Shown here: in pieces, positions 1 through 64,000 of the stretch | Numbering within the stretch: the stretch's first letter is position 1 | Layout: each line of letters begins with the position of its first letter | From: Paraspadella gotoi | Lineage: Eukaryota > Animalia > Chaetognatha | Direction: 5' to 3' | DNA length: 64,000 bases | Assembly (NCBI GenBank): GCA_051294375.1 | Contig: CM119267.1 | Coordinates: 10,663,045 to 10,727,044 of the forward strand | Made by a program: the position numbers and the translations under genes | The notes under the pieces: model-generated | Database searches by the model: none | The model's input: only the letters and a program-made list of their open reading frames with translations | Told to the model about the DNA's origin: nothing

Positions 1-1813
1 CATTCGTAGCAACTCAATCGGCGTTGTTCCTGTCGCATGTAACGCTCGGTTTCGGGACACATATCCAAGCATGTCCCTTCAACAACTTTAGCGCTTTTAA
101 TATCGGTGTTCTTGGTGTGGCGGGCCCGTATAATCTTGTCACGTTCCTTCAACACTTCCCATTTTTCCGCGTTGGTCTTTGCGTAGACCGGAATACCGCC
201 TAACATTTGAGCCCTAAGTCGAGAAGGGACGATGGGTGGCGTGGATTCTCGGTATGGTTCCGGGGAAGGTTTTCGTATCTCGGCCGTCCTCAACCCTGCG
301 GGGAGAGGGAGGGGCTCTCGATAATCGCCGCCGCCCATGGCGATCAATTCGGAATTCACGTCAGCTTCCAACGCGGATTTTTGACGTGGGGGTTGAGGCT
401 TCTTAAAAAAAATAACCAGGTTGCGAGCGCGAGTGGTGTTCGGGTTCATGGTGCGTCCCAATTGCTTGGCGCGCGCGGCTTGCTCGTGATTCTCGAAGGT
501 GATCGTGGCTTGGAAAAGGCGCGTGTTGAGTCGAACATCCTTTACAACGCCGAATTTATCAAAGTGGCGCTTTAATGATACTTTAGTATCTGTTGGCTGC
601 AAGCCCTTAACGATGAGCGCGATGCTCTCCTCGAAAGTGCCTGAAGATCGGCGTCGTACGGAGGCGCCGCCGCCACGACCTCTTACGGGCGAGGTGTCGC
701 GCTCGATCTCCTCCTCGGGTGTTGGTTCTGTGGGCCGGGCGGGCAAATCGACGGGGGATGCGGATGTCGCGGCGGCGGCTCTCGTTGAGAAGGAACTGCC
801 CGCGGTAACTACAAAGGCCGGTTGTTCCATAAGAGATGGAACGGTAGAGATGGGTTTAAATGGATTTCCCGATTCCTCGCCATGTGTTTTGGCCATGACG
901 CCGAAAACGTTGGTGGAAGAAGAATTCTTGGAAGGAGCGAACACAGAACTTTTCCTTCCAAACACAGACGAAGACGTTGACATCGGGACTCCGAACAATG
1001 AAGGAATTGGCTGCGCCGTTGTCGTCGTCGTCGTCGTTTGCAACGGAGTCATTTCTACGGAAACCGTCGTTTGCGTGCTGTATATTGGCTGTTGAGGCGA
1101 TGATGATGATGGTTTAGTCGCGAACAGGAGTGATTGCCCTCCTTAAAAAAGGAAGAAATTATTAAGAAGAGACGAATTAAACTGATTAACAAGATTTTAA
1201 TACCAGGAAGCGATGTTTTCGAAAATTCGTCGGAAACTTGACCAGAAACAAAAGCGGAAGCGGAAGAGGCCCCGGAAAAACTTTGATTTCCTTCGCCGAA
1301 TCGAACCTTCGTTGAGGATTGACTAACGGCAAAGGGCGAAGAAACGGCAGAGGTTGTGGTACCGAATGCCGAGGACGATCCGTAGACTGGTTTGGAACTG
1401 TTCCCAGCTCCAAACACGGACGTCGTCAATGAGCTGACGCCGCCAAATACGGGCGCGCTCGGTGTAGTAGTTCCAAAGAGTGACGGCACGCCGGAGGTAG
1501 AGGCGGAGCCGAAGGACGGAGTGGATATGCCGAAGATAGACGCCGACGTGGTGGTGGTTGAAGCGCCGAAAACCTTTGACGTCGGCGATTTGGTGCCGAA
1601 GGGATTGACGGAACCGGAAGAGCTCTGAGCAAAAGTCGACGTTGACGACATAAAACCGGCGGTTGTACTAGAAACTGGAGCGGAACCAAAGACGGGATTT
1701 TCCAAAGCGGCGCCGAAAATGTTTTGACCCGAAAGGGATTTAGAAGATGCGCCGAAGACATTCTGACTGGTAGAAGTGTTTTGACCGAACACGTTGCTTG
1801 GAAACCGTGACAT
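1..1813 (-). CDS. MCM3AP: GANP/MCM3AP (Sac3/Xmas-2 family, TREX-2 scaffold), 5' part; runs off the window start
   Basis: Exon 1 (1813-1204) encodes an FG-repeat N-terminus (MSRFPSNVFGQ...). GT-AG intron at 1203-1142. Exon 2 reads ...NAEKWEVLKERDKIIRARA...VEGTCLDMCPETERYMRQEQRRLSCYE, the conserved start of the Sac3/GANP domain. Confidence 0.9.
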
Positions 1814-1821
1814 TCTTGATT

Positions 1822-1838
1822 CTGAGAAAGAAAATTTT
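1822..1838 (-). promoter_or_regulatory. Splice acceptor 8 nt upstream of the GANP ATG (outron or 5' UTR intron end)
   Basis: Minus strand aaattttctttctcAG|aatcaagaATG. Confidence 0.6.
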
Positions 1839-2718
1839 AAAAATGAGCATATATAGAAGGAAATGCAGTCTTCTCATGTCAAGAATCCAAAGCAATCGGA
1901 ATTATTTATGAATAGAATTTCATTAGCTGAATAGCCAAATGAAAAACTGTACTAGTATGTGCATTGTACATGTACAATGTACAATATCGCAACTTTGTTT
2001 TTCGTTAACATGCGAGCAGTAATTTTGCAGTCACAACGTAACACCATATGTCGAAAAGAATATCAAGAAAAAAACATAACTTTTAACAAATAACTTATAC
2101 AAAAACTTTTTGGCCTATTATCTTATTTAAGTATTAGAAATATGAAAAAAATAACAATTCATTTGAAAATAATCTCTTCCTTTGATCACACACCGACGGA
2201 GATAAAGTTGAAATCAGCCTCTTATCATTTCTAAATGGTTTTCAAATGAAGTTTAAACTGTCTGATCCTGACAGGGTAAAATACGCAAATTATTTGCGTT
2301 CAGAAACGAGACGCCGATCCGGTTGCAACCTGATTCTTTAGAGAAAATCTTCATTTTTTAAAAAGAATTCATCTTCATACTTCATTTTGTATTCTATGAT
2401 CTATCTCTTTTTTATCTTTGATACGCCGATCGAAATCTATTCATAAAAATTAACACAAAGTGCCTGACAATTCCATGCACCATTACTCAAAAATGTAATT
2501 CTTTGCCTTTAACTCAATATAAATCCAATTAGCTGTCTTTAAAAAAAAAAGGGTTTTTAAAATTTTAATTGAAGTAATGAAATATTTACTATACTTTTCT
2601 TTATTCACAAATTTACATAAGACACAATGGAAAATGGCCTCGCGTAACAGTTGCAGTCGTAAAAAAAATTCCCTGTTCAATTTTGTGATATTCGGTTAGA
2701 TTTTGTAGAACGTGTTTT

Positions 2719-2888
2719 CATATATTTATATAAAAAACTACATTTGCTTCATCTTTTTTCCCCATTTTTTATCCAGTTATCTTTTTTATGGTCAAGGGTT
2801 AACCCATATATTTATATAAAAAACTACATTGCTTCATCTTTTTTCCCCCATTTTTTATCCAGTTATCTTTTTTATGGTCAAGGGTTAA
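2719..2888. repeat. Near-perfect tandem duplication of an ~86-bp AT-rich unit
   Basis: catatatttatataaaaaactacatt(t)gcttcatc...ggtcaagggttaa occurs twice head-to-tail with only small indels. Confidence 0.9.
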
Positions 2889-4972
2889 AGTCAGATACAG
2901 TAGTACAAAATATACACAATATAATAACCAATTTAGGATAAACTTTAAATGAACAAAATCAGCAGGAGAACGTTTCGCCAAGTTATTTTTCATTGTGTCA
3001 TAAGAGAGAGTTCGTTCGAAGGTCGTTTACCTTTAAACAAGGAGAGATCTTTCCTAATTTTAAAAAATAGGCCGACAAGTTATCTAACAAAATTCGACCT
3101 CAAAATCCGAAGTTCGCCTCTCGGCCAATGTCAAGTTAATTTTTTTATCCTCTCGACGAGAGTCTCGTCCTTTAAATTTAAAAGCTTCGAAACGAAGAGA
3201 AAAAGATCCCTGGGAAGAGAAGAGAAATTGCAGAGGCTAAAATAAAACTACCTACAGAACGAAAGGGAGATCAGCCACTGGAAAAAATCGGTCAGTCGGT
3301 CGCGCAGGTGTTTTTTAAATGGTTTTAAAAAGCTGTGATAATTATAACAAGAAAATTTACTTTACTTCAACTTGTTTTTGTATTAATTTTATAATAAGTT
3401 TAAAACATCAATTTTTAATTAAGCTATTATCAAACATTTTTTCTCATTAAAACCAGATAAGGGAGAAACCGCTTATGATTCAAAGTCCACGAGGGACACA
3501 AAAAACCTCCACCCGAAAAGATTTCGGTATAAAAAGGGAAAGAAATACTCGACTCTTGCACTTTCGTCCCAAAGAAATTCTTTCTCGAATCGTTTTAGAA
3601 ACCAAAGGGGTATTAAATAAAAGAAATCCGCTCGTCATTATTAGTCAATAGACTCGTTTGAAATCTCGGAAAGTGTGTTTGTCAACACGAAACATTTGGA
3701 CCACAAAAAAATAGCTGGTACGCCGACACAATAACCCTTTTCCTACTCGGCTGGTTCCTCGCGATGAATCCGGGTCGACACAACCCTGCCTGAGGCTGAT
3801 TCAATATTCTCCCTTCGTTTCGACGCGGTTTCATCATCCAAAATTCATTCACCTTGTCTTAGCACTCGATTAAACCCCGAAACGCAAAACACACGAACTC
3901 GAGAAGGGGGAAAAAACTTTGCGAAAAGATGGATTACGCGATGTTCGACATGATTTGTGCCAAAGACTGCGACGAAAGGGAAAAAAGCCGAAATTCGGAA
4001 TCGAACTTCTTTCCAAAAGTTCAGTTTTGCGCGAATTCAGGTGATTTGGAATGGGAAAACTTTTTTTATTTGGATAATTTTTTCGCAAAAATGTGAGTAA
4101 AAAAAATAATTTAAGTCAAATCAATAAAATATACTATAGAAAAAGATCAATTGTGAGTAACTCAGTAAGGTTATCTCCGAGGTTTGACGAATTTCACAAA
4201 TTGATTTCCTCAGAAATTATGAGTTCCGAATGGAGCATTATGCGGGCGGCCAAATCCGTTCTCTTCGACCTCTCGCCACTCGTCCGAGCGGCGGCCAAGT
4301 GCGTCGATGTCGAGACGCGGCCCGTGACTGCCGCTGGCCACGAACTTTCTTATGGAACGGAAGATGTCGCGGAAAACCGAGAAAAAAACGACAGTTTGAC
4401 GCAGCGGGAATTCTGTCTACTCACTCATAATTGCGGCTGAAAAACATTTTACGCGTTCTCTCTGTAATTTTAAAGACATTTGCAATATTTACGCTGATGC
4501 TGGACACGATTTCGTGCTTGCACGCATTACACTCGCTGGTCGATGTATAACTTTCTCTTCTCAACTTTTTATTTTTGATACATGCATTTGTACATTTTTA
4601 TATAACTGTAATAATAAGTTACTTTAAAAATGATTCTGCGTTAGTAAAAGTTTCTTTAATTGCGCTGAGTGATGTATTGCTTTTACCAACTTTTTAATAA
4701 GTTTTTGAGGTTGGTTCAAACAGCTGCTCTTCCAGAAAATGAATTTGAAGTACTAAAAATGTTTCGATCTGATGACGAAACACTCAAAGTACAAAAATCG
4801 TTACGCAATACGAAACATACCCGTTTCAGGCCGTCTCCAAAATATCCAAGGCGATTTATTCAAACACTAGATAGATGAAAAGATAACAAAAAGTTACAAC
4901 TAATGACAAAAGCTTCTCATGCGAGTCATCTAAAAGAGAGATCGAAAAGTTAGTTTGTTCGTTGATGATTCT

Positions 4973-5362
4973 TCAGTGACTCTCGCCGAAGAGCGCCTTT
5001 CCTCGATGATGAAAAGAGTAAAATGAAGGGTTATTCCAAACAGTCTCGAACGATTGTTTTTCCAATTCCGCCGTCACTCGAATCTCTTTCAACTCGCCCG
5101 CGACGTTGATGACGCCGAAAGCGACCACACCGAGCGCCACTAGGCACTGAAAATGATGTTGAGAACAAAACAGTAGAACCAACCCAGGAAAAACGCGTTT
5201 TCACAAAGGGACTCTAACCTGAATTGCGATGTCGAGAGGCAACGCAAAGAATTCCGTTTTGGTGAGGCGCAAATAGGTTCGGTGTTGCGCCGCTGAATAA
5301 GCGGCGTGAAGAATGAATAAGAGTCCGATTCCTACGAACACTTTGTGAATAGGATTCGCCAT
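4973..5362 (-). CDS. MMGT1: ER membrane protein complex subunit 5 / membrane magnesium transporter 1, 2 exons, 105 aa
   Basis: Exon 1 (5362-5219): MANPIHKVFVGIGLLFILHAAYSAAQHRTYLRLTKTEFFALPLDIAIQ. Intron 5218-5147 (GT..AG). Exon 2 (5146-4973): CLVALGVVAFGVINVAGELKEI...NNPSFYSFHHRGKALF. Matches the EMC5 motifs HAAxSAAQHR, LPxDI and PSFYxFxHRG. Confidence 0.93.
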
Positions 5363-5528
5363 AGCGTTAATTCTACTTAGCCATTGACTACAGAATAAAA
5401 GGCCGTGTAAATTAAAAACAGTAATTAAAAGTGCAATATAATTTAGACGTAATTGTAAAATATAATATTGAAGTCTGGACGGAATGAGTTCGGTTCATTT
5501 TATCAAATACAAGAAAAGCACTTTTGGT

Positions 5529-8240
5529 TTATGTTTTGTCTCTGGTGGCCGCCTTAATTCTGGCTCTGGCTTTGATAAATGCCATGATGTCGGCGTCGGC
5601 CTTGGAGTCACCCGTGAGCGGAATGTCAAAAACGGCGAGAGAATTTTTCGGAGCGGCGAGGGATTGACTAGAAGAAAGTGAATTTGAGTCACATGTCGAA
5701 GCGCTTTTGCTCGACAAAGTGGAAGGCAAGGCAGTAGGAATATCTGTTTTTGGCAAAGAGGCGGAGGGAGACGTAGAAACGCCGGATGACGAAGGAGAGC
5801 CATCGGCTGCCGCCCGCGATTTGGCAGGCGCCGAAACCACGGATGGCGCGCTGCGATTCTCCAAGGGTTGCAATTGATGCTTGACAGGTCTATTGGGAAG
5901 CGATCGAGTGCTGTGACTGGTTGGGGGAACATCGAGAACCTCGTTACCGAAGGACGGATCATCGTAATCAACGGAAGACGGCAAAGGCGGAGGAGCGGTT
6001 GACGCTTGGACGGGAGTCAGTGAGCGGGTTTTGGTTCGTCCCTTCGATGGTATGGCGCCGTGGTACCCATTCGACGCCGTTACCGAGGGCTTTTGTCTCA
6101 CGGTGGCGTCGTCCACCGGGTTCATCCAAGCACCGGATGAGTTCAAGACAGCCTTCTGTCGCTCGGCACTCTTGACTTGGTCGCCCCACCAAGTTTCGAA
6201 ATCCTTCTGTAGCTTAACGCGAGCTTTCTCCAGTACGTGCTGCTGGTGTTCGATCTCCGCCTTCAACTCTTTCAACTGGGCGAAGGCGAATCGGTAGTTT
6301 CGCTTTTCGTTTTCCACCTTATCGCGAATGAGAGTCTCCGTCTCGTCGGGATCCTCTTCCATCTTCGCGCCTGACATGGCCAGGCTGACACGATAATGTT
6401 CGATCTGAGCCTTAAGTCGGTTGATCGTTTCCCGGCTGGCGTTCACCTTTTCGCCGAGTTCCTTGGCCGACCGAAAGTTGGCCTTAAGCTTTTCTTTATG
6501 AGCAGCGATGACGCCATTGTCAGCATAGTCACGCTTGAACATCTCGAAGGCCTGCTGCCGCCCAACGGAAAGATCGCCGAGAATACGTCTGTTTCCGCCG
6601 ACGAGGGAAGCTTCCTTGTCGTCTGAAGCCACACTGTCCGGACGGGCGAGCGGGCGCGAGAGATCCACCGGAAATCCGTTGTGTTGCTTTTCCTTTTCCC
6701 TCTTCAACATATTCACTAAAATGGTGATCTCGTTGTCTCGCTGAAGAAGCAGATCTTGAAGTCGCTTGAAATGTTCCTCCGAGACAATTGGGCTCTTAAT
6801 CGACGTGTTGGAATCATTCAATCGATTGGCGTTTCGCGTGACAGACACCGAGCTGGAAGTTTCGATTCGGTCTGCGTAGGAGTCCTTCTTGTAGCGTCGA
6901 TCTTTGTCTTCGTCGCCACCGCCTCTTTCTCCTTTGGTAGATAGCATCCGCTTTAAAATTTTGAAGCACTCGTTGATCTTCCGCATGTCGGCGCCGACAT
7001 TGATGACTGCTTCAGTATCAGAGTCCTCAACAAAGGCCCTTACCATCGCCAGGCAACGCTCCTTTTCGTATTCCTCGAGCGGCTCGTCACTTTGTTTCCC
7101 GCCAGTCGCCAAGTGCAACTGGTTTTTTAACTCTTCCGTTTCCCGCTTTAATTTTGCGATGATGAGTTTAGGGTCCAACTCTTCGTTGAGGGTCACGTCG
7201 TTTTTGATCATCGCCACGCGTTGTGAGAACCTAACTGTGGAGATTGATTCGTCGACGCTAGCTTTTTCGACGGAACAGGTGGCCACCATGGTGGTCATGC
7301 AATTGCCGCCGAGAGAATCCTTTAAGACGTTAGTCATCATCGAGTTTCGATAAGGGACGTGGCTTTTATTTTCGCTTAAAGAAATAATAACTAGCTCCAG
7401 CATATGAAGGGAAGCGTTGATGTATTTTGCCTCGTCGAGTAGTTTGCCGTTGACGTTGGTCTTAGCGACTCGCTCGCTGCCGGCGAGATCGACGAGATGC
7501 ATCTTTGCTCGGCGAATGGTGGCAGCGCCGTGCTCGCGCGCAGTCACGTGGATCGTAAATATACAGTGCGATCGCGTCGACGCTTGATTCATTGGCGTTT
7601 CCGCGATCATGCGGTTCGTGTCGCCCAGGAAAAGGAGATTTAGTGCCTCCTCCTCGGTGTTGGCCAAATGCATAGAGAGGTTTTTCAGGTGCACGTTGTG
7701 ATCAGTGTCTTCCATCAGAGTCACTTTCGGCAGATCCTCCAGCTTGGAAATTTCGTGACGAGGATCTAAAAGATCATAGCCATGATTGTTGTATATCTCC
7801 AGATAGGAAACGTGCAACGTGAAGAGGTAACCCGTTCTCTTCTCGAACTCTTGGAAAATGTGTGAGATTGACCGGGGAATGATCCCTCGGTCGGCGTACT
7901 TCTCCGGACCACCGGTTATGGTGAAGGTTTTTCCCGAGCCAGTTTGTCCGTATGCGAAGATGGTCCCGTTGTAGCCGGAGAGGACGTTTTCGATGACGGG
8001 CTTTGCGACAACGTCGAAGATCTCCTCCTGTTTGGCCTCCACGTCGAAGACGCACTGAAATCGACCTTTGTAGCTTTCTTTGGAGTTGTTAACATAACCG
8101 CTGACGGCCGAGTCCTTCGGCAGCAGAAAGTGAAGCTCGTCGCCGCCATTCTCGCTTTTCTCGATATCGTAGTGACCGACTGGTTGTTTCCGGCGAGGCG
8201 GCTTCACGCGACAAAAAATCTGAATGGTCGCTTTCACCAT
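5529..8240 (-). CDS. KIF6: Kinesin-9 family motor KIF6, single exon, 903 aa
   Basis: N-terminus MVKATIQIFCRVKP; P-loop GQTGSGKT; NQASTRSH; DLAGSER; KIF6-type C-terminal motif IPLTGDSKADADIMAFIKAR. Confidence 0.93.
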   Translation of the reverse strand: MVKATIQIFCRVKPPRRKQPVGHYDIEKSENGGDELHFLLPKDSAVSGYVNNSKESYKGRFQCVFDVEAKQEEIFDVVAKPVIENVLSGYNGTIFAYGQTGSGKTFTITGGPEKYADRGIIPRSISHIFQEFEKRTGYLFTLHVSYLEIYNNHGYDLLDPRHEISKLEDLPKVTLMEDTDHNVHLKNLSMHLANTEEEALNLLFLGDTNRMIAETPMNQASTRSHCIFTIHVTAREHGAATIRRAKMHLVDLAGSERVAKTNVNGKLLDEAKYINASLHMLELVIISLSENKSHVPYRNSMMTNVLKDSLGGNCMTTMVATCSVEKASVDESISTVRFSQRVAMIKNDVTLNEELDPKLIIAKLKRETEELKNQLHLATGGKQSDEPLEEYEKERCLAMVRAFVEDSDTEAVINVGADMRKINECFKILKRMLSTKGERGGGDEDKDRRYKKDSYADRIETSSSVSVTRNANRLNDSNTSIKSPIVSEEHFKRLQDLLLQRDNEITILVNMLKREKEKQHNGFPVDLSRPLARPDSVASDDKEASLVGGNRRILGDLSVGRQQAFEMFKRDYADNGVIAAHKEKLKANFRSAKELGEKVNASRETINRLKAQIEHYRVSLAMSGAKMEEDPDETETLIRDKVENEKRNYRFAFAQLKELKAEIEHQQHVLEKARVKLQKDFETWWGDQVKSAERQKAVLNSSGAWMNPVDDATVRQKPSVTASNGYHGAIPSKGRTKTRSLTPVQASTAPPPLPSSVDYDDPSFGNEVLDVPPTSHSTRSLPNRPVKHQLQPLENRSAPSVVSAPAKSRAAADGSPSSSGVSTSPSASLPKTDIPTALPSTLSSKSASTCDSNSLSSSQSLAAPKNSLAVFDIPLTGDSKADADIMAFIKARARIKAATRDKT

Positions 8241-8525
8241 AGTTTACAATTTAAAAACACTTGAAAAATACTATGCATTAATCGATTTGTTAGTTAAAGG
8301 TTTAGCACGCATTTTCAAAAGACCACCTATTCAGCTGAGTAAAGTTCTACTTGCTATAAAATAAAAACAAAATAAAAATAATGAATACAATAATAAATTT
8401 TAAAGTTAGAAATTTAATACGTATCAAGAAAAGAACAAATAAGAGTCACTTTTAAATCAGAAACATTTAAATATTAATTCTACATATAAACTAAGTGAAT
8501 TATTTTTCGGAAAGAAAATACCATA

Positions 8526-10364
8526 TCACAAAGGAATGTTGCCGTGCTTTTTCCAAGGATTTTCAAGTTTTTTGGTCGCCAAAATCTCGAGGTCGTTGCA
8601 AAGTCGAACCCTCGTAGTGGAAGGTTCTATAATATCGTCCACGAAGCCTCTGACGGCCGCTGGCATCGGGTTGGCGAACTTTCTAACGTAATCTGCCTCC
8701 GCGGCTTGGACGTCTTTTCCCCTAAAAATGATGGAAACAGCGCCCTTTGCGCCCATGACGGCGACTTCAGCCGATGGCCAACAATAATTGACGTCGCCCC
8801 TGAGATGCTTGGAGCTCATGACGTCGTAGGCCCCACCGTAAGCTTTTCGAGTGATGACTGTTAATTTGGGGACGGTGGCTTCGGCGTAAGCGTAAAGCAG
8901 CTTGGCTCCGTGCTTGATAATTCCGCCGTACTCTTGACCCACGCCAGGGAGGAAACCCGGCACGTCGACGAAAGTGACGATGGGTACGTTAAAAGCATCG
9001 CAAAATCGGACGAAACGGGCGCCTTTGATGGAGGCGTTGATGTCGAGACAACCAGCGGCCGACTTCGGGTTGTTACCCACCACTCCCACCGAGCGACCGT
9101 TGAGACGGGCGAAGCCGACAACGAGGTTTTTAGCATAGTCGGGCGCGATCTCGAAAAACTCCCGCTCGTCCACGACGTCGAGAATGACGTCCTTAATGTC
9201 GTAAGCGGAGGTTGTCTCCAAAGGAACGACTGTGTTGAGTCCGGGACAAATTCGATGGGGTGAATCGAAGCAAGCCCTCACAGGTGACGCTTCCTTATTG
9301 CTGAGAGGCAGAAAGTTAAAGAGATTGCGAATGTTAAGTAAAGCCTCGATGTCGTTCTCAAAGGCGCCGGAAGCGACGCCGGAGGTGGAAGTGTGAGTCT
9401 TAGCGCCGCCCAGTTCCTCCTGAGTGACCTCCTCCCCCGTAACAGATTTGACGACATCGGGTCCGGTGATGAACATGAAAGAAGTTTGTCGCACCATGAA
9501 AATGAAGTCGGTGATCGCGGGAGAATAAACGGCGCCGCCAGCGCACGGGCCCATGATCACGGAAATCTGCGGCACCACGCCCGATGACAAAACATTTCGA
9601 AGAAAAATGTCCGCGTAGCCTGTAAAAAAAAATTACCTTAAATTTCAAAACGAACATCGTGAGCTGAAAAAAAAACTTACCTGCCAAAGATTCAACCCCC
9701 TCCTGAATCCTTGCTCCTCCCGAATCATTGAGCCCGATGACTGGAGCGCCGACCATGACGGCCTTGTCCATGATCTTGCAGATCTTTTTGGCGTGGGCGG
9801 AGGACAAGCTTCCGCCGAAAACGGTAAAGTCTTGACTAAATACAAAGCAATTCCGTCCGTTGATGTGGCCGTGGCCTGTGATGACTCCGTCGCCGTAATA
9901 TTTTTCCTTTTCCATCCCGAAGTCAGTGCAGCGGTGTTCGGAAAACATGTCATACTCGACAAAAGTACCTTTTAAAAATTATAAATCGGACTATGTACAG
10001 ACGATAAAATAAGAGGTCAGCGAGAGGATGTAGAGTTTGAACCATAATAAAGAAAGGTAAATTTCAGATTACTTATTCAAGGTTACCTTGCAAGAAAAGG
10101 TAACTTACCTTCGTCCAAAAGCAGCTCTATTCTTTCCCTCGCTGTGAGTTTTCCCTTTTTATGCTGCGTGGCGATGCGCTTCTCTCCGCCTCCCAATAAC
10201 GCGACTTTACGTACATCTTGAATGTGTTGCTGAACTTCGAGCGAGTGTGTGGCGCTTCCTGCCTCCGTAGCGAAAGACGCCGGAAAAATGGCCGGCGCAA
10301 TTCTACGGGCGCTGCTAAGCCACACAGACCTCAAGACGCCGGTTGAGACGCGGATCAACGCCAT
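8526..10364 (-). CDS. PCCB: Propionyl-CoA carboxylase beta chain, mitochondrial, 3 exons (10364-10109, 9968-9681, 9619-8526)
   Basis: Mitochondrial presequence-like N-terminus; [22 protein letters not shown]; [15 protein letters not shown]; [15 protein letters not shown]; C-terminal [13 protein letters not shown] introns keep the frame. Confidence 0.96.
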
Positions 10365-15682: not shown

Positions 15683-16598
15683 TTAACCGTCCAGCGGCGG
15701 TCCGAGATAAACCATAGATACTTCGGTATTGCCGTAAACGGCGGATACGGCCGGATAGAAAAGGATTTTGGGGAGACCGCGAAACGCGACTCCGAGAAAT
15801 TCGTAGCCCCTTTCAAAGGAAAGAGTGTGGTCCTCGCAGTCGAGAATGACTCGGATGCGTTCGCCGACCTGGTATTTGGGGGCGTTATTGAGTTGCGGAT
15901 AATTGCCCTGAGAGTCGCCGTTGTGGAGCAAGTGATTGTCCACGAGATTCCAGCCCCAACTCTGGTCGTCACTTCCGAGGAGGCCCACATAACCGTGGCA
16001 CTGCATAGGTGACATCTTGGTGGCGATGCCGATGACAGCCACTGTGCCTAGTGGACCCTGAAAGTATTCCAAAGATTATACAAGCATTTAAAAGAATATG
16101 TATAAACGCTAAGTTTAAAACCAACTTATCAATTTTAAATTCTCTTTTGAAGGAACATAGGTTCCTTCAAATAGCAAGCCGTACCTCCCACCAAACTTCC
16201 CAACAATGTCGCCCCCGCCAAAATCCACGTTTTCCTCTCGCGCCGTCGGTGCTCTGAGCCACCGGGTTTCGGTGAACAGTGAACCCGTTAGCTTTGATGT
16301 AAACGTTTCGCGAACAGTCGTTTGGATTCCATGCATGATAGAAAGCGCAAAGTTTGGCCTTGTAAGAGGGGCATCCCACTAGGATGTCAGTCTTGAGCGC
16401 CTCTTCCGGTAAGGCGCTCTGACTCAAAAACTTCCACACCTCGTTATTTTCGTCCCTGAGAAAACGGCACCAAGATTTGCAAGCGAGGGAGCAACTGTGA
16501 AGATCCCCGAGGTCGAGGTAGGCGAAGATGGCCGCGAGAACCGTGGGCGGAAGGCGCGCAGCCAAGCTACCCATCGCGTTGACGAGTTTGCCTGTCAT
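15683..16598 (-). CDS. FBXO45: F-box/SPRY domain protein 1 (FBXO45/Fsn), 2 exons (16598-16185, 16057-15683)
   Basis: F-box [13 protein letters not shown]; SPRY motifs [15 protein letters not shown] and WEVWWE|[12 protein letters not shown]; C-terminal [24 protein letters not shown]. Start could be the second ATG (MGSLAARL). Confidence 0.95.
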
Positions 16599-16654
16599 CG
16601 CAAGACAGAGGTTGAGTGAGGAGTCGCCATATCGTCAGTTTTAAGAAGGCTGGT

Positions 16655-16726: not shown

Positions 16727-17590
16727 CTATTTTTTTTCAAGTTTAATCTTCTTTTCCAGTGGTGGTTTGCTGACGTCGCCCTCGGTTTTGACTTTATCCG
16801 CGTGGGCGACTCGTTTCGATCCGCTCCCGGAAGCGACGGAAGTGAGAGCCATCGACGATGCTTCCGCGGCTCCATTGACCGCGACCCCGTTCGGCGTGGC
16901 CTTTTCCCGCTTCGACTCTCCGGCGGAGGGGGCTTCGGAAGGCGCCGGAGCCGGAGGCGGGTTCATAGCTTTGGGTGGGAAGCGCTTCGTCAAATCGTCT
17001 AAGAGTTGATCGACCTTTTGACGCTGGAAAATAGAGGAAGGCTCCTCCTTCCGACGTTTCTCCTTCCGCTTTAGCTGTTCTCCCTTAAGTTTCTCTTCCT
17101 TGGCGACCTCCATCGCTTGCGATTCTTTGTCCTTAAACTCCCAATGGTAGCCTTTGGCCGACTGGTATTTCGCGTAGGAGTGAACCTCGTTATAGGCCTG
17201 TTGGAGATAGTTGGCGCAATTCGCGAGGCGGGAATTAACAATGTTGCCAAGATCTGGCGCCTGATACACTTTTCCGGCTATGACGTAATAGTGCGCCAGA
17301 GGAATCACTTGGGTGGGGGATGTTCGGTGCTGCTTTCGAATGACGTAGAGGATCGGCTCCTGAGCTACCAACAAAACGTATTCCACACCGACCATACCCA
17401 ACAGCTGGTCGGGATTCAACCGCTGCATGCGAACCACCTCATTGTTGCATTGACGGTCGTAAAACATGGACTCCGCGAAATAATCGAGAACATTGGAGGA
17501 ATTTAGGATGGGCATCCACGCTTCCGCCTGCCAAGATTGGTGCAGCAGAGTGTCTTTGGAGTCTAGAGCGTTTAAGTTAGGATTCGCCAT
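16727..17590 (-). CDS. MED6: Mediator complex subunit 6, single exon
   Basis: First ATG at 17590 (MANPNL). Motifs [52 protein letters not shown] and [13 protein letters not shown]. Confidence 0.95.
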
Positions 17591-18518: not shown

Positions 18519-19136
18519 TCAAGCCAACGCCAGATCTTCGTGATCGTCCGCCTCTTCTCTCAAGAGTTGGTGACGCACGCAAGTAACGTTGACGGTGGAC
18601 GCCTCGGGTCTCCCGTCGCCACGCTCCCTTCCCGCGATGTTCTCCGCGAACTCATCGAATCGGTCGTAGTCCGTCTCCTCGCCCTCGCGAATCCGCCGCT
18701 CCCGCCGCGCCGCCAGAGTCAGAAGCAGGTTGAGGACGGCGGTAAGGGCGAGCAGCGAGCCGGGGATGAGAAGAAGCCAGACGGCGCGAGGGCGAAAAAA
18801 GCAAGGGATAGAGAGGAGCGCGTAGAGAGGACACTTTTTCGAGCTGTCCACCCACTCGAGGGCGTCTAGAATGAGGGTGGTAACCTTACCCGGACGGTAC
18901 CCGATGGACACGCAGAGGTCGACCATAAACAAAGTTTCCAGGGCGACGACGACGCAGGCGGCGCAGAGGGCGTACCAACCGATCGCCTGGCCAAAGTAGG
19001 TAACCTCGACGCCCACTCCGGACATGCAGGTGGCGCTTGCCAAGCCGGAGAGGCGGCAGGCCCATAGCAATACGGCGGAAAGGGGAGGGCACGAGGACGG
19101 CAAGTGGAGAGACGCCAGAAAATAATACAAGCTCAT
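18519..19136 (-). CDS. TMEM72: TMEM72-like multi-pass membrane protein, 205 aa
   Basis: Hydrophobic ORF with CRLSGLASA, GVGVE, YALLSIPCF and WLLLIPGSLL, resembling TMEM72 as I recall it (CRLLG, GVGTE, YLLLSVACF, WHVTIPGSML). Confidence 0.7.
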   Translation of the reverse strand: MSLYYFLASLHLPSSCPPLSAVLLWACRLSGLASATCMSGVGVEVTYFGQAIGWYALCAACVVVALETLFMVDLCVSIGYRPGKVTTLILDALEWVDSSKKCPLYALLSIPCFFRPRAVWLLLIPGSLLALTAVLNLLLTLAARRERRIREGEETDYDRFDEFAENIAGRERGDGRPEASTVNVTCVRHQLLREEADDHEDLALA

Positions 19137-19869: not shown

Positions 19870-20487
19870 TTATTTCCCATTTTTCTCAACAATGGCGAGG
19901 CAAGTGTCGGCGAATTCGACAAAAAGAGGCTCCTGCATGGCTCCGTGCATGATGGCGTTTTTGTTAAGAGCGCCGTCGACTTCGAGCAACGCAGTTCGCA
20001 GATGCGGGTTCGCCAAAAGCGTTTTCAAGCGTTTCGAAGCACAGAGTTCCTTCAAGATTCGCCTACTTAATTTGTCGGGATTCTCAGAGTTCGCTCCCTC
20101 TTCCTCCCCCGAAGAGGAAGCCGAGGACGTGAGTTCTATCTCGCCCTCGTGTCTCTCTAATCCGCGCTTGATAGCGAGACGTCGAGCGTGTTTCTCTAAC
20201 AGGGAAAGAGAAGACGGAGCGGCGGCTGCGGCTGCTGCGGCCGCGACGTCCTCGGGATCGTCCTCGATGTCCAACTCGGCCTGACACTGGGTGTTGTGAG
20301 TCTTGTAGCAAGAGAGAGAGCAGTAAAGTATGGAACAGCGAGGGCAGCGATATTTGTGATCTTGCAAGTTACAAACTTGGCAAATCTGTTGTTTGTCTTT
20401 GAGCGAAATTGTTTTAATGTTTTCCGATCTGGATCGGAAATAAGAGCGAAAAAAGCCCCGTTTTCGACCGCGTCTCGTGGATGACAT
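19870..20487 (-). CDS. ZNHIT3: Zinc finger HIT domain protein 3 (box C/D snoRNP assembly factor)
   Basis: HIT finger CQVC...KYRCPRCSILYCSLSCYKTH; C-terminal LKTLLANPHLR...AMQEPLFVEFADTCLAIVE. Confidence 0.9.
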   Translation of the reverse strand: MSSTRRGRKRGFFRSYFRSRSENIKTISLKDKQQICQVCNLQDHKYRCPRCSILYCSLSCYKTHNTQCQAELDIEDDPEDVAAAAAAAAAPSSLSLLEKHARRLAIKRGLERHEGEIELTSSASSSGEEEGANSENPDKLSRRILKELCASKRLKTLLANPHLRTALLEVDGALNKNAIMHGAMQEPLFVEFADTCLAIVEKNGK

Positions 20488-20566: not shown

Positions 20567-20821
20567 TTATTCTTTGAATTTCCACTCTTGCCGGCACATC
20601 GGACATTGCTGATGAACTTGTTGGCTGTTGAGCCACTTCATGATGCAATGTATGTGAAAACAATGGGAGCATTTACCCCAGACTAACGGACAATCGTCGC
20701 CCGGCAGTTTACAATCTGGGCAGCAGCTATCGAAGGCCATTCGACAGATGCCACAGTTGTCATCGTTGGCGACCCACTTCCAGACGGCGACTCCGGTCCA
20801 GTTTTTTACTACAACTTTCAT
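20567..20821 (-). CDS. ANAPC11: Anaphase-promoting complex subunit 11 (RING-H2), 84 aa
   Basis: MKVVVKNWTGVAVWKWVANDDNCGICRMAFDSCCPDCKLPGDDCPLVWGKCSHCFHIHCI...QQCPMCRQEWKFKE. Confidence 0.98.
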   Translation of the reverse strand: MKVVVKNWTGVAVWKWVANDDNCGICRMAFDSCCPDCKLPGDDCPLVWGKCSHCFHIHCIMKWLNSQQVHQQCPMCRQEWKFKE

Positions 20822-21738: not shown

Positions 21739-24700
21739 TTAACGTCTGGATTTTTTCACAGGGGGCGCATCCTTGTGAGGTGTCATCGAGCGTCTTCCTA
21801 TCGATGTTGCGGTATTCGCCTTTCTACTTCTACCGGAGGTGACCGCCGGAGAGGAGACCGGGGTCGATTCGGCCGCTGGCTGATCGCGGGCAGAGCGTAA
21901 GGCGTTGCTGGTGACACCCAACTCCTTTTCCACCTTGGTCAGCTCCGCTTCGGCTTTCCTGAGTTGCTCCTTTTTATCGACAATGTCGGGCGCTCCATCC
22001 TCCTGCATCTGCGAGTCAATGTCGGCCACGGTCTTTTGATGCGCCACCAATGCCGCTTTGTAGGCGTGTAGGACGTCGATGAGGTTCTGCGTTTCGGCGA
22101 TTTCTGGCGGTGTCGGCTCGCCGAACATGTTCTTCAACTTTTCCGCCGGTGGAGCCCGATTTTGGGATCCGCCGAACTTTCCATTGCTCCGGATCCTCTC
22201 ACCGGTTCTAGTGAGGATCGTGGGACATTGATTAAACTTGACTACCTCTCGACGATATTCGTTGGCTTCGCGCTGGGAGTCCATCAAAATCGTGTCGCCT
22301 AAAATTTGAGCAAAGACCAGGCGGCACTCGTCTTCGTGAACCGGAAACGCGAGACAGTGGCGTGCGTAGACGGGATTTCCGGGCGGCTCGTATCGCGGTC
22401 GATAGCGCACGTGCGGCAACTGCTTATCCCAATCCGGAATTGACCGTCGGTGCATGTTTTCGATCGGAAGTACTTGTTGCTGGCCACGCGAGGCTTCGTG
22501 CACTTTGTTGGCGGCGGCAAGAGTTTTTGTGACAACGCAGTCCATGTCACCGTACATGTGCCAGGACAAAACGCGCGCGACGTCGATTTCGGAAACTTGC
22601 GCGAGGTGGCAGACTTTGCCTATAACGTCGGGCTCATGGGGGGCAGGAGGGATCGGGCATACGCGCCGCTGCCGTTGGCTCAACTCTTGCTTGCGTTGTC
22701 GGGCATGGTTTAAAGTGGCGTCTACTTGGGAGACTTTTTGCAAATCCTTCGGGTGAAGCCGATGGTTTGTTCGCAATTCTTCCCCGATATTTTTCAGTTT
22801 CTCATGTTGATCGCGTTCGGTACTCCGCAAAGTAGCCATCAAATCAGCGGAAGTTTGGAAAAATTCCCTGAAGGTTGCCACCTGTCGATGAAGCTGGTCG
22901 CGCTTTTTGGACAAAGACTGCATCGCCGATTGCTTGGAAGAGTCGTTGTAGAAGATGAACTGAACGTCGAAAGGATCCACGTTCTCAAACTGGCCTCGCC
23001 GTTTCCCGGCAGAATCCTCGAAAAGTTCGCAACGCAGGTAGTAAGGTTGTTCATCTTGACCGGGTGAGTTCTCGGCGATTTGAACTGTCTGTATGTGACA
23101 CTGACCAAGGGTGAATGGAATGGAGAGGAATTTGGTGCCGCCGGCCAATTGAGGAATTCGCTCAGCCTCTTTAGCCGAGGGTTTGGAACCGTCGACCTTG
23201 TGGAGAATAGTCATCACTAGAGTTCCGTTGAGAAACTCGCCGCTCGTGTTGCCGTACTTATCTTCCAAAGAAAGTCGCAAAGACCGGATGATAGTTCGAG
23301 TTGCGGCGCGTTGAGTATTAGAAACAAGCGGCGTTCCGGGAAGCTGGTTAGGCACCAACTTCTCGGGTTCGCCAGGAATAGCGTGAAAGATGGAAGGTTT
23401 GGAAGCGAGGGAGTGATAATTGTCCGCGTATTCTGCGATCATCCGATACTCACCGACTTTTATCGGACACTGAAGGTGCGAGAACTTAAACACGCCGGTT
23501 TTGTTATCCATCGAAGTGGGGTCGTAGACGTCGCAGTCTTTCGGCGGCGCGTTGACGTTTTTCTTAGCCTTGGGGTCCATCAGGTCGACGAGCCACATGC
23601 GCAGCTGCACATCTCGCTTCTTGGCCGTCCGCATTATCCCGCCGTCCTCGGCGTAAATTTTAAGACAAAACTCTGGCAACTTATCACCGACGGCGAAACT
23701 CGGTTGATCCGAATCAACGTCCCACTCTTTGTCCAGCCGCACGGGCTTGCTGGCGTCTAAAGCAATATTGACGGAGAGTTGAGGTCCGGAGATATTCTTC
23801 ATCTGGTTGGTTCCACCCGGACTCCAAGTGGCTTTGGGCTGCAAAACAAAGCTGCCATCACCGGTAACCTTAAAGGGACCGAAAGAAGCCTTTCCATTTT
23901 TAGTCTTTTCTAACTTCGGGGACGGATCGAGTTTCGCACCATCTCCTTCCTTAGTGAGCCTAATGCTAACGCCGGTGTCGGGACAATCGTTGCCCCACTC
24001 GTCTACAAGGCGGCAAACGATTTTGTCTAAAGTTCCTTCGTTGTGTATTTGTTTTGGAATGTCGTTGGTCCAATTTGTCATAATGTCTTTGGGGAGCCCT
24101 GCCTTAACTTCTATTCTGACACTGTTCTCCATTGTTCCCCATCGAAAGCCAAGCTGCTGGTAATATGGGGTGACAGTTCCGGGAGCACAAGCGGACAATT
24201 GGATATCCGAGACCGTGAATGTCATTCCGTCCATGTACTTGACTTCTGCTTGAATAGCGCCGTCGATCTCGAGCCTGTGTTCGTCGGTCGTCTCAAGAGA
24301 GATGCAAGGATTCCCAAAGACGTCGGCGAGAGAGATAAAAATTTCCGCATCGAGCCGCTGACCTCGGCGGACGACAAGGTTATCGCCCTCGGTGGTCACT
24401 TTTATATTCTTCGGGGGTCCGTGGAGGGGCTCGAGCGTGAAGGACAGATCGACGTCGCCAATGGAAATGTTGCAATACTTGCCTTCCTCTCGTACCAAAG
24501 AAGGAACCTTCACGTCGGGCAAGAGACCGCGATACGCCTTGTTGGCTTCAATTTTCGGCTGCCAGTTGACCTTGAGTTTTTCGAGAATACTTTTGGTGAT
24601 TTCAACCTCGCGACCAGCTTCGTCGAGAAGAGAAAAGCAAAGGTCTTTCAACACGGATCCAGCCTGGAGTTTAATCACTTCGCCGTTTTTGACGGGTCGT

Positions 24701-27700
24701 GTTTCATCGTCGTCGTTTTCGCCAGTCATCAATCTACTGACGCGAATGACCGCGATCCGTTTGCTTGGGAAGACGGTGATGATTCGGTCCACGGTCGGCA
24801 CGTCCTTCAGAGTAGGGACGTCGAAACGAACCTTTATTTCCTGTTCCTTCGCCAATTTTTTCAGATTTATGGCGGAACCCTTTAAGTGACCCTTTCCAAG
24901 CTGGGAAACGTCGGTTTTGTAAGGCAAAGGAAGACCAGCTTGACTGCCGCTAAATTTCATCTCCACAGTGAGTTTCTCCTTTTTAGGGACGTTTCTGGTT
25001 ACGTTTCCTGCGACGTCGACGACCTTGACTTCGAACTCGAGAGAAGCCCCGTTCTCGATACGGACGCTCGTTTCTGGGTTAACTACGAGCGATTTGGGAA
25101 GACCTGGTTCGATGCGGATCTTGAGATTTTCGGATTTATTTTTGAAGCCGGCGCTGGCCTCTTCGTCCGGGAGGGAAATCTTTAAGTAAAAGTCGGTGCC
25201 GGTAAGGTTGACCACTGGACCCTTAGCGATGATGCCTCGCATTTGAAGGCTCATTGACTTAAAGACAACATCGTCGTAGGTGATTTCTAAACCTTCGGCT
25301 GAGATCTCCGGTTTTAGATCTTTCGGTGGCTTCGTCGGATGGCGTTTTTCGTCGGTGAATTCGAGCGGAATAGTGAACGGCGATCCGATGCGGAAGGGTC
25401 CGTCAAGTTGGCCGATGTTGAATCGGACAGGATCGCCTTCTGTAACTTGAAATTTGATCCGGTGGGATGGAAAGGGGCGACCGTTGAAGGAAGTGCAGGT
25501 TGCGTCACCGAGACAAACCTGTGTTGTAAACAAGTTTGAGCAAACAATGCCGGATCTGCCCACGATCATTAGCGGTAAGCAGCTGATCCGATAATTAATT
25601 AATTAATATTATTTTTTTTATTCGTGTCAAAATCGTTTTCCACTTTGTCTCGCCTCTCAATCACAAAACAACAATCTCGATCACAAAAGTAATTAATTAA
25701 TTAATTAAAAATAAAAAATAATTAATTAATTACTTATTTATAATGCAGCTTGAATTTACATTTAATATAAAAATAAAAAAGCATAATAAAATGGTGAAAT
25801 AGATTGTTTTTTACATTTTAACTCATTTCCACTCGGACGATTCAATCGAAACTTGATTTCCAGCTCAATCACACACTTTCCTACCCACACACAAAATTTC
25901 ATTCCAATCCATCCAATAAATCACGAATAATTGGTGTTTTTTGCTATGGGACGGACGGACAGACAGACAAACATTTTTTTGCATAATTTATCATAATTCG
26001 ATGTTATGACAAGATTGGGGGGCGAACCGACAAAGTGAATTATAGATGTAAGCAGATCCGGCTAAAAATCAATGTGAATAAATTTATTTCATTCGTTATT
26101 TCAATAAATTTGGTCTCAGGAATCCATCGTCTGTTTTCGTCGTTGAAAGTAAAAACCATCAAAATATTGTTTAAATAGTTATTAATAATTTACAAGGAAA
26201 AAACTTTTCGTATAGAAATTTAAATAATAATCTTTTTTGGATAAATACTATAAAACAGTTTTAAATATATACCTATTGTAGTACAAGAAACTTAAAATGT
26301 ACTACGGTAAAAGTTATTATTTGGACTCGCCTGAAGTTCTAGGGTGTATGAGCCCATGTCCTTAACAGGATTGTCAATTCTTCGGAACCAATAAGGCCAC
26401 TTAGTTGCGTGCGACGCGAGGTGATTGGTGACGACGTGATCCCCGGAGTTCCCATGCTTGATAATGTTTAGCCTAACGTATAACTTCTTAGAAGAGCCTG
26501 AACCAGGCATCTTGCTAATAGCTTCGTTGTTTTTGTTAAGAATCTCACATTTGATAGCGCCAATGACACAACGCCCATATTTGCGTTTCATCCCATTAGT
26601 GAGCTCGTCTCCCTCCGGCCATTCAACAATGAGAATGTCGGGGAGCTTGTTTTCTTCTTGGATAACATGAGCCTGGACTTGACTCTCACTGCAAAACTTG
26701 TCCAAGCGGTGAATCTGGAAAACTCGGAGAGGATCCTCACCAAAGAGCGAGGAAGGGAGCTGCTCCAATTCCACCTCGCCCCCGGTGGCGAAGATGTCGC
26801 CCTTAGATTCGTTGCTGGCGTAGAGCAGGAATCGTTTGATCTTCCCGTAAAATGCGGGAGTGGAACGAAGAATGTGAACCCAATCGCCCTGCTTAAAAGT
26901 GATTTTGTCCCAATGAATTCGTTTAAAGACGGACCATGGATGGGCTTTTCCTTTTGGGACGTCCTTTCTCGTTGTCTCTTCGACAAAGTTCATAAATTTA
27001 ATCTGCTTGTCATAAGTCTCGTGGCAGGCCTTGATCCAGGCGTTGAAGTCCTTTCCGATGTCAACCGTCCGCTTAGGAAGACCCCCGGCGACGTCAATGC
27101 ATGAAAACGTGGTGGCGTTTTTGTCTTTGAGTTTGTTCTCTAAATCCATGAAGGTAAGCTTATTGGTGGAAACTTGAAAGGTGCTGTCGCAAAAAAGGAC
27201 GCCGCTTATTCGATTGTAACACTCCTTTGGAATCGTATCGCTCTTGCGTTTTGGGAGAGAACACCAGTCGAATTCGTCGATGCACGTGTATGGAATGAGA
27301 CGTCCGTTCCAGTAAGTTTCGAATATGGGGCGTTTTCCCCGAGCCGGCCGTCCGTCCATGTTGATCTCCTCTACATCCGAATCAGGATCTGGCGGAGTAT
27401 GGAGCGACGATTCTGTATCCGGGGGATAGGTTTCTCGCGTGAACAGAAACGGGTGATACCTTAAAAATAAACAATTCATAGTTATTTTTCGACATAAATT
27501 TACTACTACTGTAGTAGTACTACTTCATCCCTGCCTAAAATTTAGTCAAATGCTTGGATTAAAAATTTTGTTCTTTTCAATTGTGCATTTTCATTATCTT
27601 TCTCTCCTTCATTTAAAATCATTCTTTCAGTTAATTTTGTAAAAAACAAGTTTGACCAAACAATGTCGGATCTGCCTACGATAATTAAGCGGTAATAAGC

Positions 27701-32903: not shown

Positions 32904-54937
<22,034 letters not shown>

Positions 54938-56220: not shown

Positions 56221-57080
<860 letters not shown>

Positions 57081-61897: not shown

Positions 61898-63074
61898 TTT
61901 TAATTTTTAAATATAACTCCTCAATATCAATATCGATTATTTTTTTATATAGTCATGGTTATTATTAAGTTTATTAATACATTCCTCTGAAATAAAGATT
62001 TTTAAAGTCATACGATCGTGATGATTAAAATTTTACAATGCTTTTCAAATCATTGAAAGAGCAATTGCACTAAGCGAAAATCAACAACATTCAAAAACTC
62101 AAAAGTTATTGTAAAAATTGTGTCAGTTAAAAAATTTGAAAACAATTTCAAACAAATTGCGCATTGATTTGAAAAACTTATTACATCTAAAGCAATGAAT
62201 GTTTCTACAAATAACAACAATCCACATATAATCTGTAATGTATCCTGGTTTAAATTTTTAGGAGATCAATACAAATCTAAGTACTATTTTGATCTTTGCT
62301 TTTAGACCGTAGATCCTACTATTTGGTTCATTAAAGTTATATTGAACTCCATCAATAATTTACTAAGAATTTTTTTGTTTTTTTGTTTTCTTCACATATT
62401 ACAAAAAATACATCAATGTATTCGTGGAAATATCCCTTGAATATATGGCAATGCAGATATTTATCTGCGATAACATCGCTGAGTGAGACTAGATAATATG
62501 CTAAACTAAAGGATTAAATTTTTGATAAATACAACAAGAGTGGGAAAACTCAGATTATGGTCATCCTAAAAAAAATTAATGATGTTAAAATGTATGAAAA
62601 TGCAAGAAACACCCATTTTATTATTTCATTTATTTATCATCACAACTATGAATGCAGATAAATTTATCCGGTCGTTATTTAAAAAACCGATATTTTTTTT
62701 TGCAACAATATTCGACGACCGAGTTACTCCACCCTTCTACTCAAAATAAGATTTAATATGCAGTGTTTGAAATGCAAGATTTAACTTTTCACTGTGGGCG
62801 TCCCTAACTATATCGTTACGGAGCGATTATCCCAGAACGAATTCCAATCCCGAAGCAGTTTGTTTTTTTATTTTTTTAAATTTGGTAAGTCGCCTCAATC
62901 ATAAGATTTTTCCAAGTCAGAAATGAAAAACGTTCAGGAAGAATTACCAAGGCAGTTAAGTTCAAAAAGTTAAAAACAATCACTCTTGTTAGAATAAGAA
63001 ATGAAAAACGGTTTTAAATACTGCTAGGCTTCAACAATAAAAACAAAAACTTACAAACAAAACAAATAAGAAAT

Positions 63075-64000
63075 TTACTGAGGAGGTGGTCCGTCAGAAT
63101 ACCTCAGTTGCGGTTGCAACGACCACCTAAGGTTATTCCTAGAATGACAACAATCAGGGGAAAACAAAATGTTGAGAGCGATGAACAGCACGAGAAATGC
63201 GATGGAAACGAGGGCCAACGTGGAACGGCGGCGGAATATGCGAGATAGAAAACTGGACGAGATTCTTGAGTCGGTGTCATCTTCGGCGTCGTCGTCGTCA
63301 TCATGGGATTCGCAAATAAAAGGCCACCTCTTATCTTCAAAAGTATCCTCGACGCCTTCATCGCAAGACGGGTTCAACCAATCGGCGGCGCTCAATTCAT
63401 TAACTTCCCGACACAGAGCTCTCAATTGCGAGAGGAGAATCTCTCGCGCCGCGGAAGACGCAACTGGGAGTAACTCATTCGCCAATTCCTGCAAGCGTCG
63501 TAGGTCTTCTTCCAAAAACTCGGCGTGCCTCTCTAAAAGTCGACGATCCATTTCAAAAGACTCAAAATTGAAATCTTTCGCATCCTTCGCAGATCCACGA
63601 TTTTCCAATGTCGCTCTTCGCAGCATCTGCCCTCGTCGACGTTGAATTTTAAGTCCAAAAACAGTCTCTCCTACGAATTCATCAAACATCAACCACTGCT
63701 GAAACGTGGCTTTCAGATCGATTAATCGTTGCGCGAGCACATTCGCTAATCCTTCCAATTCTTCGTCTACTGCGGCAACGGAATCTGAGATTTTCTGAAC
63801 ATTGTACCTCGGATTTGTGTCGGCAAAGAGGATGAGGCGGCTCTGTGTCTCGTCGAGCAGTAAACGACGATCGGCTATATCGCGGCCGAGATTCTGTAGA
63901 TCGGAGACCAACGCTTCAAGACGAGCAGCATCGTCGGCGACGACGTCTGTTTCGATCCAAGACGAAACTGTGTCGCGGAAGTCGATGGCACTGAGGAGAT
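63075..64000 (-). CDS. KASH-domain protein (nesprin/SYNE-like), 3' end only
   Basis: Frame is open to the window end. Spectrin-repeat-like helices, then a TM segment (LALVSIAFLVLFIALNILF) and a luminal tail DCCHSRNNLRWSLQPQLRYSDGPPPQ-stop with the KASH PPPX end. Confidence 0.88.
   Translation of the reverse strand, partial: LLSAIDFRDTVSSWIETDVVADDAARLEALVSDLQNLGRDIADRRLLLDETQSRLILFADTNPRYNVQKISDSVAAVDEELEGLANVLAQRLIDLKATFQQWLMFDEFVGETVFGLKIQRRRGQMLRRATLENRGSAKDAKDFNFESFEMDRRLLERHAEFLEEDLRRLQELANELLPVASSAAREILLSQLRALCREVNELSAADWLNPSCDEGVEDTFEDKRWPFICESHDDDDDAEDDTDSRISSSFLSRIFRRRSTLALVSIAFLVLFIALNILFSPDCCHSRNNLRWSLQPQLRYSDGPPPQ

Follow-up and report, generated by a model that had tools for sequence, protein, structure and literature searches.

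How many genes in a long one-way animal gene array belong to a single transcription unit? The question is raised by a 64,000-nt stretch of the genome of the chaetognath Paraspadella gotoi (contig CM119267.1, positions 10,663,045 to 10,727,044; hereafter the window), in which 16/16 modelled genes are encoded on the minus strand and follow one another as KASH, BICD, Ras, dynein heavy chain, RWD-RING, SMCHD1, ANAPC11, ZNHIT3, TMEM72, MED6, FBXO45, RCOR, PCCB, KIF6, EMC5 and GANP. An initial annotation had proposed one or a few polycistronic units resolved by spliced-leader (SL) trans-splicing, of which operon-like packing over the seven genes from MED6 to GANP is borne out here. We estimate a probability of about 0.65 that MED6, FBXO45, RCOR, PCCB, KIF6, EMC5 and GANP (>17.6 kb) form one leader-resolved operon inside the 16-gene same-strand array. 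RNA polymerase II would transcribe MED6 through GANP from what is presumably a single upstream promoter, cis introns would be removed from the shared precursor, and each downstream message would be freed by leader addition at an AG near the 3' end of the preceding gene, presumably also at genes other than EMC5. For GANP, leader addition most likely occurs at or near the EMC5 3' end and would be followed by removal of a 3-kb intron; the EMC5 3' region contains an AATAAA at 4,860 and a weak AG at 4,836-4,835. The nine upstream genes, which include two pairs less than 250 bp apart, would probably comprise further operons (ANAPC11-ZNHIT3 and RWD-RING-SMCHD1) and at least one more promoter.

The shared orientation is secure. 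Translations of all 16 models are free of internal stops, each gene has a Pfam match (for GANP, an RRM and a weak FG-repeat match only), and 0/86 plus-strand frames of at least 80 amino acids in the window matched Pfam. Searches of the window with Rfam and, for transfer RNAs, with ARAGORN found nothing. The models contain 41 introns, 35 of them shorter than 250 nt, and the dynein gene, previously put at 22 kb, measures 22,034 bp. The quoted chance of about 3e-5 for such a run is arithmetically right if genes are independent ((1/2)^15 = 3.05e-5), but that null is too strict for an operon-bearing genome: where 60-70% of neighbours share a strand, a set of 21,000 genes should contain 4-30 such runs. 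Stop-to-ATG gaps, in gene order, are 1,177, 2,459, 1,283, 500, 189 and 917 bp (KASH-BICD through SMCHD1-ANAPC11), 79, 733, 928, 128 and 551 bp (ANAPC11-ZNHIT3 through FBXO45-RCOR), and then 333 (RCOR-PCCB), 285 (PCCB-KIF6), 166 (KIF6-EMC5) and 3,159 bp (EMC5-GANP). The six gaps first quoted (79, 128, 166, 189, 285 and 333 bp) were thus correct, though they are the six smallest; "tiny spacers" describes 6/15 gaps, whereas the other nine span 500-3,159 bp.

Near-contiguous transcripts from MED6 to GANP

The evidence for a seven-gene unit comes from one public RNA run (X1), which held 74% of the sampled window words. Its contigs were aligned to positions 1,500-19,500, a region that runs from the start of GANP through MED6 and, among the nine upstream genes, includes only TMEM72. 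We found 27 contigs there, with at least 15 canonical joints removing GT-AG or GC-AG introns (the RCOR intron 12423-12616 is an RNA-confirmed GC-AG case). Because the 15 listed joints excise such introns, X1 represents spliced RNA from this organism or one almost identical to it. Two other runs (X2 and X3) gave matches of 34-50 nt only and were not used.

Two contigs each span two genes. A 2,907-nt contig (record 4) runs from 18,370 through MED6, the 128-bp spacer and spliced FBXO45 to 15,373, its 5' end sitting 149 nt from the TMEM72 stop, and a 4,798-nt contig (record 3) runs from spliced PCCB across the 285-bp spacer and through all of KIF6. Between KIF6 and EMC5 the contigs lie 44 nt apart (5,388-5,431 is without coverage). 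The GANP acceptor joins a GT donor at 4,820, 152 nt beyond the EMC5 stop, with 2,999 nt excised (depth 92.6). This AG had been listed as a trans acceptor; its pairing with a cis donor, named in advance as grounds for dropping the proposal, shows it to be a cis acceptor. Around RCOR, the borders were obtained from read depth. In five depth bins the listed contigs gave the observed value to a tenth, and arithmetic on two further bins places the start of the RCOR contig at ~15,437, overlapping record 4 by ~65 nt, and its 3' end 1-8 nt from the 5' end of the PCCB contig.

From MED6 to GANP, successive transcripts overlap, lie no more than 44 nt apart, or are joined by splicing (the 152-nt EMC5-GANP link). 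Coding gaps of 333, 551 and 3,159 bp shrink to about 0-150 nt once untranslated regions (UTRs) and a UTR intron are seen. The published chaetognath operon definition (Piovani et al.; PMC12460157) links neighbours less than 250 bp apart; measured by RNA ends, all six MED6-GANP links lie below that distance, two of them by depth arithmetic. No contig covered 18,371-19,500, which holds the TMEM72 coding region, and this stretch was counted neither for nor against a longer unit.

Some contigs carried features of their own. The KIF6 contig ends at 5432 in 30 foreign letters that resemble the start of another coding message and have no GT donor, probably a library chimera. The GANP 5' intron (1822-4820) is covered by low-depth contigs (about 8-26), one of which skips 173 nt at 4,037-4,209 without splice ends; within the intron there are also a tandem duplication of 86 bp (2,754-2,888) and what may be an unused exon (3,209-3,031).

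Leader junction, acceptor sites and spacers

Leader trans-splicing is supported at one predicted site. The EMC5 contig (mean depth 191) opens with a non-genomic 9-mer, TTGTTTAAA, directly abutting the AG at 5,389-5,388, the very acceptor that had been predicted for this gene. The window contains five copies of TTGTTTAAA, none directly followed by GT and none upstream usable as an exon end; local cis-splicing fails to explain the junction because no copy directly precedes a GT. A leader-gene pattern was not found in the window. We rejected back-splicing from a TTGTTTAAAG|GT site at 3,040, because it would introduce an extra G, and none is present at the aligned junction. According to Table 3 of PMC2481426, 25 of the 26 chaetognath leader forms given there end in TTGTTTAAA, and these nine letters are the longest end common to those forms; a contig merging several leader forms may be expected to retain only the shared end. 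On AT-rich DNA the 9-mer would match by chance at ~3e-5 of sites, and the junction would carry an AG with a probability of ~0.05. Known leader ends number a few dozen, and a chance match across that set is unlikely.

The acceptor sites are less informative. All seven AGs listed by the initial annotation exist, and a matrix built from the 41 modelled introns scored them at 8.7 (GANP), 0.7 (EMC5), 5.2 (KIF6), 11.1 (PCCB), 5.9 (FBXO45), 3.4 (MED6) and 5.0 bits (ZNHIT3). Such sites are not enriched close to start codons: acceptor-like AGs (≥4 bits) lay within 60 nt of the ATG in 6/15 genes against 38/153 and 56/193 background tiles (p 0.15 and 0.25). At up to 130 nt, strong sites showed a modest enrichment (7/15 against 18-20%; p 0.009-0.02, uncorrected and taken from the most favourable of six settings of window and threshold). 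As enrichment is nil at 60 nt and modest at 130 nt, trans-splicing is not established by sequence alone.

Spacer composition gave similarly partial signals. The U-richness previously ascribed to the spacers is marked in four of the six short ones (T fraction 0.45-0.49) but ordinary in the other two (0.40, against 0.39 in short introns). AATAAA is absent from all six spacers below 340 bp, where ~1 copy is expected by chance, and it is present in 5/7 upstream gaps of 500-2,459 bp. The AATAAA-free short spacers hint at 3'-end formation coupled to trans-splicing, which we take as a lead only. Common AATAAA variants are also absent from the RWD-SMCHD1, ANAPC11-ZNHIT3, MED6-FBXO45 and RCOR-PCCB spacers. 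No promoter word common to the spacers stood out beyond multiple testing (best p 3.5e-4 among 1,802 hexamers), and the T/A skew of non-coding DNA favoured the minus strand weakly, in 12/16 blocks.

Competing readings and the wider window

Several points weigh against a seven-gene operon. By coding distance, only 4/15 gaps fall below 250 bp. The RNA comes from one run and as assembled contigs, and a two-gene contig does not equate to one molecule, one strand or one start; overlapping UTRs would yield the same spacer-crossing contigs. Both RCOR borders come from depth arithmetic and presuppose that the bins concerned contain no third contig. Among the matches listed, the leader is visible at 1/8 gene starts in the RNA-compared region, its nine letters are all that is seen of it, and the match to published leaders was made after the fact. 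With the EMC5 acceptor itself at 0.7 bits, the sequence model predicts trans acceptors poorly. Set beside the published definition, EMC5 supplies the leader-bearing gene, judged by contig depth instead of the five-read rule of PMC12460157; the leader is absent from the locus, and both the TTGTTTAAA leader end and the MED6 clade (below) point, indirectly, to a chaetognath host.

In a rival reading, each gene has its own promoter and the genes are only tightly packed, EMC5 being a monocistronic trans-spliced gene with a promoter inside KIF6 and the spacer-crossing contigs reflecting UTR overlap or read-through. It draws on the published figures for Paraspadella gotoi, in which about half of the genes are trans-spliced and only 18% are operonic under the 250-bp rule (PMC12460157), as well as on the detection of the leader at one gene only and the blindness of contigs to start sites. 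We nevertheless consider it quite unlikely: six coincidences of transcript ends within about 0-150 nt would be required, promoters would be needed inside upstream coding or UTR sequence, and the GANP exon splices to sequence directly behind EMC5.

Still less likely is the opposite extension, that all 16 genes (>64 kb, with dynein and SMCHD1) form one leader-resolved polycistronic unit exceeding the published animal operons cited here. The upstream gaps could contract as the tested ones did (333, 551 and 3,159 bp, reduced to about 0-150 nt), record 4 extends to within 149 nt of the TMEM72 stop, the run is uninterrupted by any plus-strand gene, and a bacterial artificial chromosome (BAC) from Spadella shows a comparable one-strand array (see below). 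Nonetheless, the seven upstream gaps (500-2,459 bp) are roomy enough for promoters, though they may consist of UTRs only, and five of them contain AATAAA; published maxima are nine genes in chaetognaths and 11 in tunicates; and the RNA comparison ended at 19,500.

That EMC5-GANP, PCCB-KIF6 and MED6-FBXO45 persist as mature cis-spliced dicistronic mRNAs, uncut by trans-splicing, is highly improbable: the main contig path into GANP is indeed a cis-splice from the EMC5 3' region (depth 92.6 against about 8-26 in the intron), and the other two pairs lie on unbroken spliced contigs with AATAAA in neither spacer, yet assemblers would be expected from de Bruijn assembly to trim short leader tips on a continuous precursor path, an AATAAA lies 40 nt before the GANP donor, and the MED6 contigs of close relatives (923-1,561 nt) leave no room for a second gene. 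The leader-resolved operon from MED6 to GANP is therefore the reading we retain; its features are listed with the rest of the window in Table 1. The name GANP for the gene at 1..1813 is assigned tentatively from its domain order.

Table 1. Gene models and RNA-defined features of the window, in descending coordinate order
Feature	Position	Strand	Evidence and remarks
KASH-domain (nesprin-like) gene, 3' part	63075..64000	-	Pfam KASH 6e-12; extends beyond window
BICD, single exon, 794 aa	59513..61897	-	Pfam BicD 3e-132
Ras, 5 exons, 187 aa	56221..57053	-	Pfam Ras on exon 3
Cytoplasmic-type dynein heavy chain, 17 exons, 4,668 aa, 22,034 bp	32904..54937	-	Pfam DHC_N1, DHC_N2, AAA_6-9, MT, Dynein_C
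RWD-RING gene, single exon	31399..32403	-	Pfam RWD, zf-C3HC4
SMCHD1, 5 exons, 2,072 aa, one modelled GC donor	21739..31209	-	Pfam HATPase_c_3, SMCHD1_S5, SMC_hinge
ANAPC11	20567..20821	-	Pfam zf-ANAPC11 7e-36
ZNHIT3; 79 bp from ANAPC11 stop	19870..20487	-	Pfam zf-HIT, ZNHIT3_C
TMEM72-family gene	18519..19136	-	Pfam TMEM72 1e-22
MED6; opens RNA-supported block	16727..17590	-	Pfam Med6; RNA contig record 4
FBXO45, 2 exons; 128 bp from MED6	15683..16598	-	Pfam F-box, SPRY; RNA joint 16,056-16,184
RCOR/CoREST, 13 exons, 895 aa	10698..15131	-	Pfam REST_helical; at least 10 RNA joints, depth 183
PCCB, 3 exons	8526..10364	-	Pfam Carboxyl_trans; RNA contig
KIF6 (kinesin-9), single exon	5529..8240	-	Pfam Kinesin, KIF9; RNA contig record 3
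Uncovered stretch, aligned 3' end of KIF6 contig to EMC5 leader junction, 44 nt	5388..5431	-	Acceptor AG at 5,389-5,388
EMC5 leader junction, non-genomic TTGTTTAAA 5' of this base	5387	-	One RNA contig, depth 191
EMC5/MMGT1, 2 exons, 105 aa	4973..5362	-	Pfam MMgT; RNA joint 5,146-5,219
GT-AG cis intron, EMC5 3' region to GANP, 2,999 nt	1822..4820	-	RNA joint 1,821-4,821, depth 92.6
GANP/MCM3AP-like gene, 5' part	1..1813	-	Pfam RRM_1, weak Nucleoporin_FG; extends beyond window

MED6 gave an indirect indication of the host lineage. In a tree of 41 proteins hand-chosen from 146 fetched, plus that of the window (a rotifer and a named chaetognath being absent from the set), it formed with eight proteins a long-stemmed clade of 100/100 support that excluded the named molluscs, annelids, arthropods, deuterostomes and a coral; relatives 63-76% identical to it were found. 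A metagenome scan with the MED6 alignment returned 46 loci, none from the close clade, none neighbouring any of the other 15 genes, and none with the chaetognath leader end at its start. MED6 in the window (16727-17590) is intronless, while genomic contigs of relatives (P0125, P0128, P0131, P0138 and P0141) break at 'SPTQ|VIPL', which suggests that an intron may have been lost in this lineage. Two unrelated MED6 transcript contigs (L004 1-25 and L006 1-40) begin with similar sequences ending in CACTTCTACAAGAG and CACTTCACTAAGAG, which we take to resemble a copepod-type spliced leader.

Observations elsewhere in the window concern composition and repeats. Coding CpG observed/expected is 1.16, which fits, weakly, an absence of methylation within gene bodies; gene bodies are unmethylated in Paraspadella (PMC12460157). 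Dynein intron 11 holds a 3.6-kb element (47906-51522) bounded by perfect terminal inverted repeats of 69 nt, with further inverted repeats inside and a low-complexity, GAC/GAA-rich filling, likely a non-autonomous DNA transposon judging from this structure. SMCHD1 is full-length in this chaetognath, with GHKL ATPase, S5-like and hinge domains; the word SMCHD1 is absent from the main text of the 2025 genome paper (PMC12460157). Its introns contain an 18-bp minisatellite (27720-28009) and two similar dispersed repeats (25900-26080 and 28290-28500).

Comparison with known systems

The initial annotation compared the layout with the SL operons of nematodes, tunicates and flatworms. The SL mechanism is supported at one site, but the relevant lineage is Chaetognatha, where it is already published: trans-splicing and operons were reported in 2008 (PMC2481426, PMC2566580), and Paraspadella gotoi has 1,470 validated operons, the longest with nine genes, and no operon-specific leader (PMC12460157). 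The locus is a large example, close to or possibly above that nine-gene maximum, and the seven-gene block may already be in the operon table of PMC12460157. It resembles chaetognath operons (PMC2481426, PMC12460157) in the leader 3' end TTGTTTAAA, in its same-strand housekeeping genes and in at least one leader-bearing gene. As in the RPS14-PCNA operon of Spadella cephaloptera, with 3 nt from poly(A) site to next acceptor (PMC2481426), upstream 3' ends lie a few bases from the 5' end of the next gene. In contrast to published chaetognath operons, the seven RNA-linked genes sit within a 16-gene same-strand run and one link passes through a 3-kb UTR intron. The locus carries cytoskeletal, chromatin and signalling genes (KIF6 and RCOR; upstream, dynein and Ras); among published chaetognath operons, protein metabolism is over-represented and signalling under-represented (PMC12460157).

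Tunicate operons (Ciona and Oikopleura), as described in PMC7986045 and PMC4122922, likewise use one leader class for operonic and monocistronic genes, have little or no intercistronic DNA and reach 7-11 genes; they differ in lineage and in leader sequence (Ciona ATTCTATTTGAATAAG). Nematode SL2-type operons (C. elegans and Trichinella; PMC7986045 and 10.1101/642082) also resolve polycistronic housekeeping clusters by trans-splicing, with up to five genes in Trichinella (10.1101/642082); unlike those of chaetognaths, they use an operon-specific leader and have ~100-nt intercistronic regions.

The long one-way array has its closest counterpart in the Spadella BAC (158 kb; Table S5 of PMC2481426, 24 rows, restricted to genes with SwissProt matches), which lists 19 plus-strand rows, four minus-strand rows and one unstranded row. 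All four minus rows are transposons, and after removal of the nine transposon or recombinase rows and the unstranded row, 14/14 genes lie on the plus strand over 120 kb. That BAC was chosen for carrying an operon, and its authors remarked on the shared orientation (PMC2481426). The words 'strand' and 'orientation' are absent from the main text of PMC12460157, with nothing relevant in the three supplements examined, and our literature searches turned up no description of long one-way arrays in chaetognaths. From these two loci it is plausible that such arrays may be a phylum trait; single transcription units are not thereby established.

Kinetoplastid directional gene clusters share the long one-strand runs of unrelated genes and leader trans-splicing. 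In those clusters a unit comprises tens to hundreds of genes with hardly any introns, and every mRNA is trans-spliced; the present locus differs in its 41 introns in 16 genes and in that a single promoter is only presumed. A kinetoplastid-like animal organization, with housekeeping genes in long one-way arrays read as polycistronic units that far exceed nine genes and span tens of kb (here perhaps 16 genes or more, dynein included), seems unlikely. On that same reading, the published 250-bp rule would split such units, the links being masked by long UTRs and UTR introns. That a distance rule can miss links is illustrated by EMC5-GANP, whose coding gap of 3,159 bp resolves into a UTR intron and a link of 152 nt. 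Should one-strand runs prove general, the longest transcription units among animals would be those of chaetognaths.

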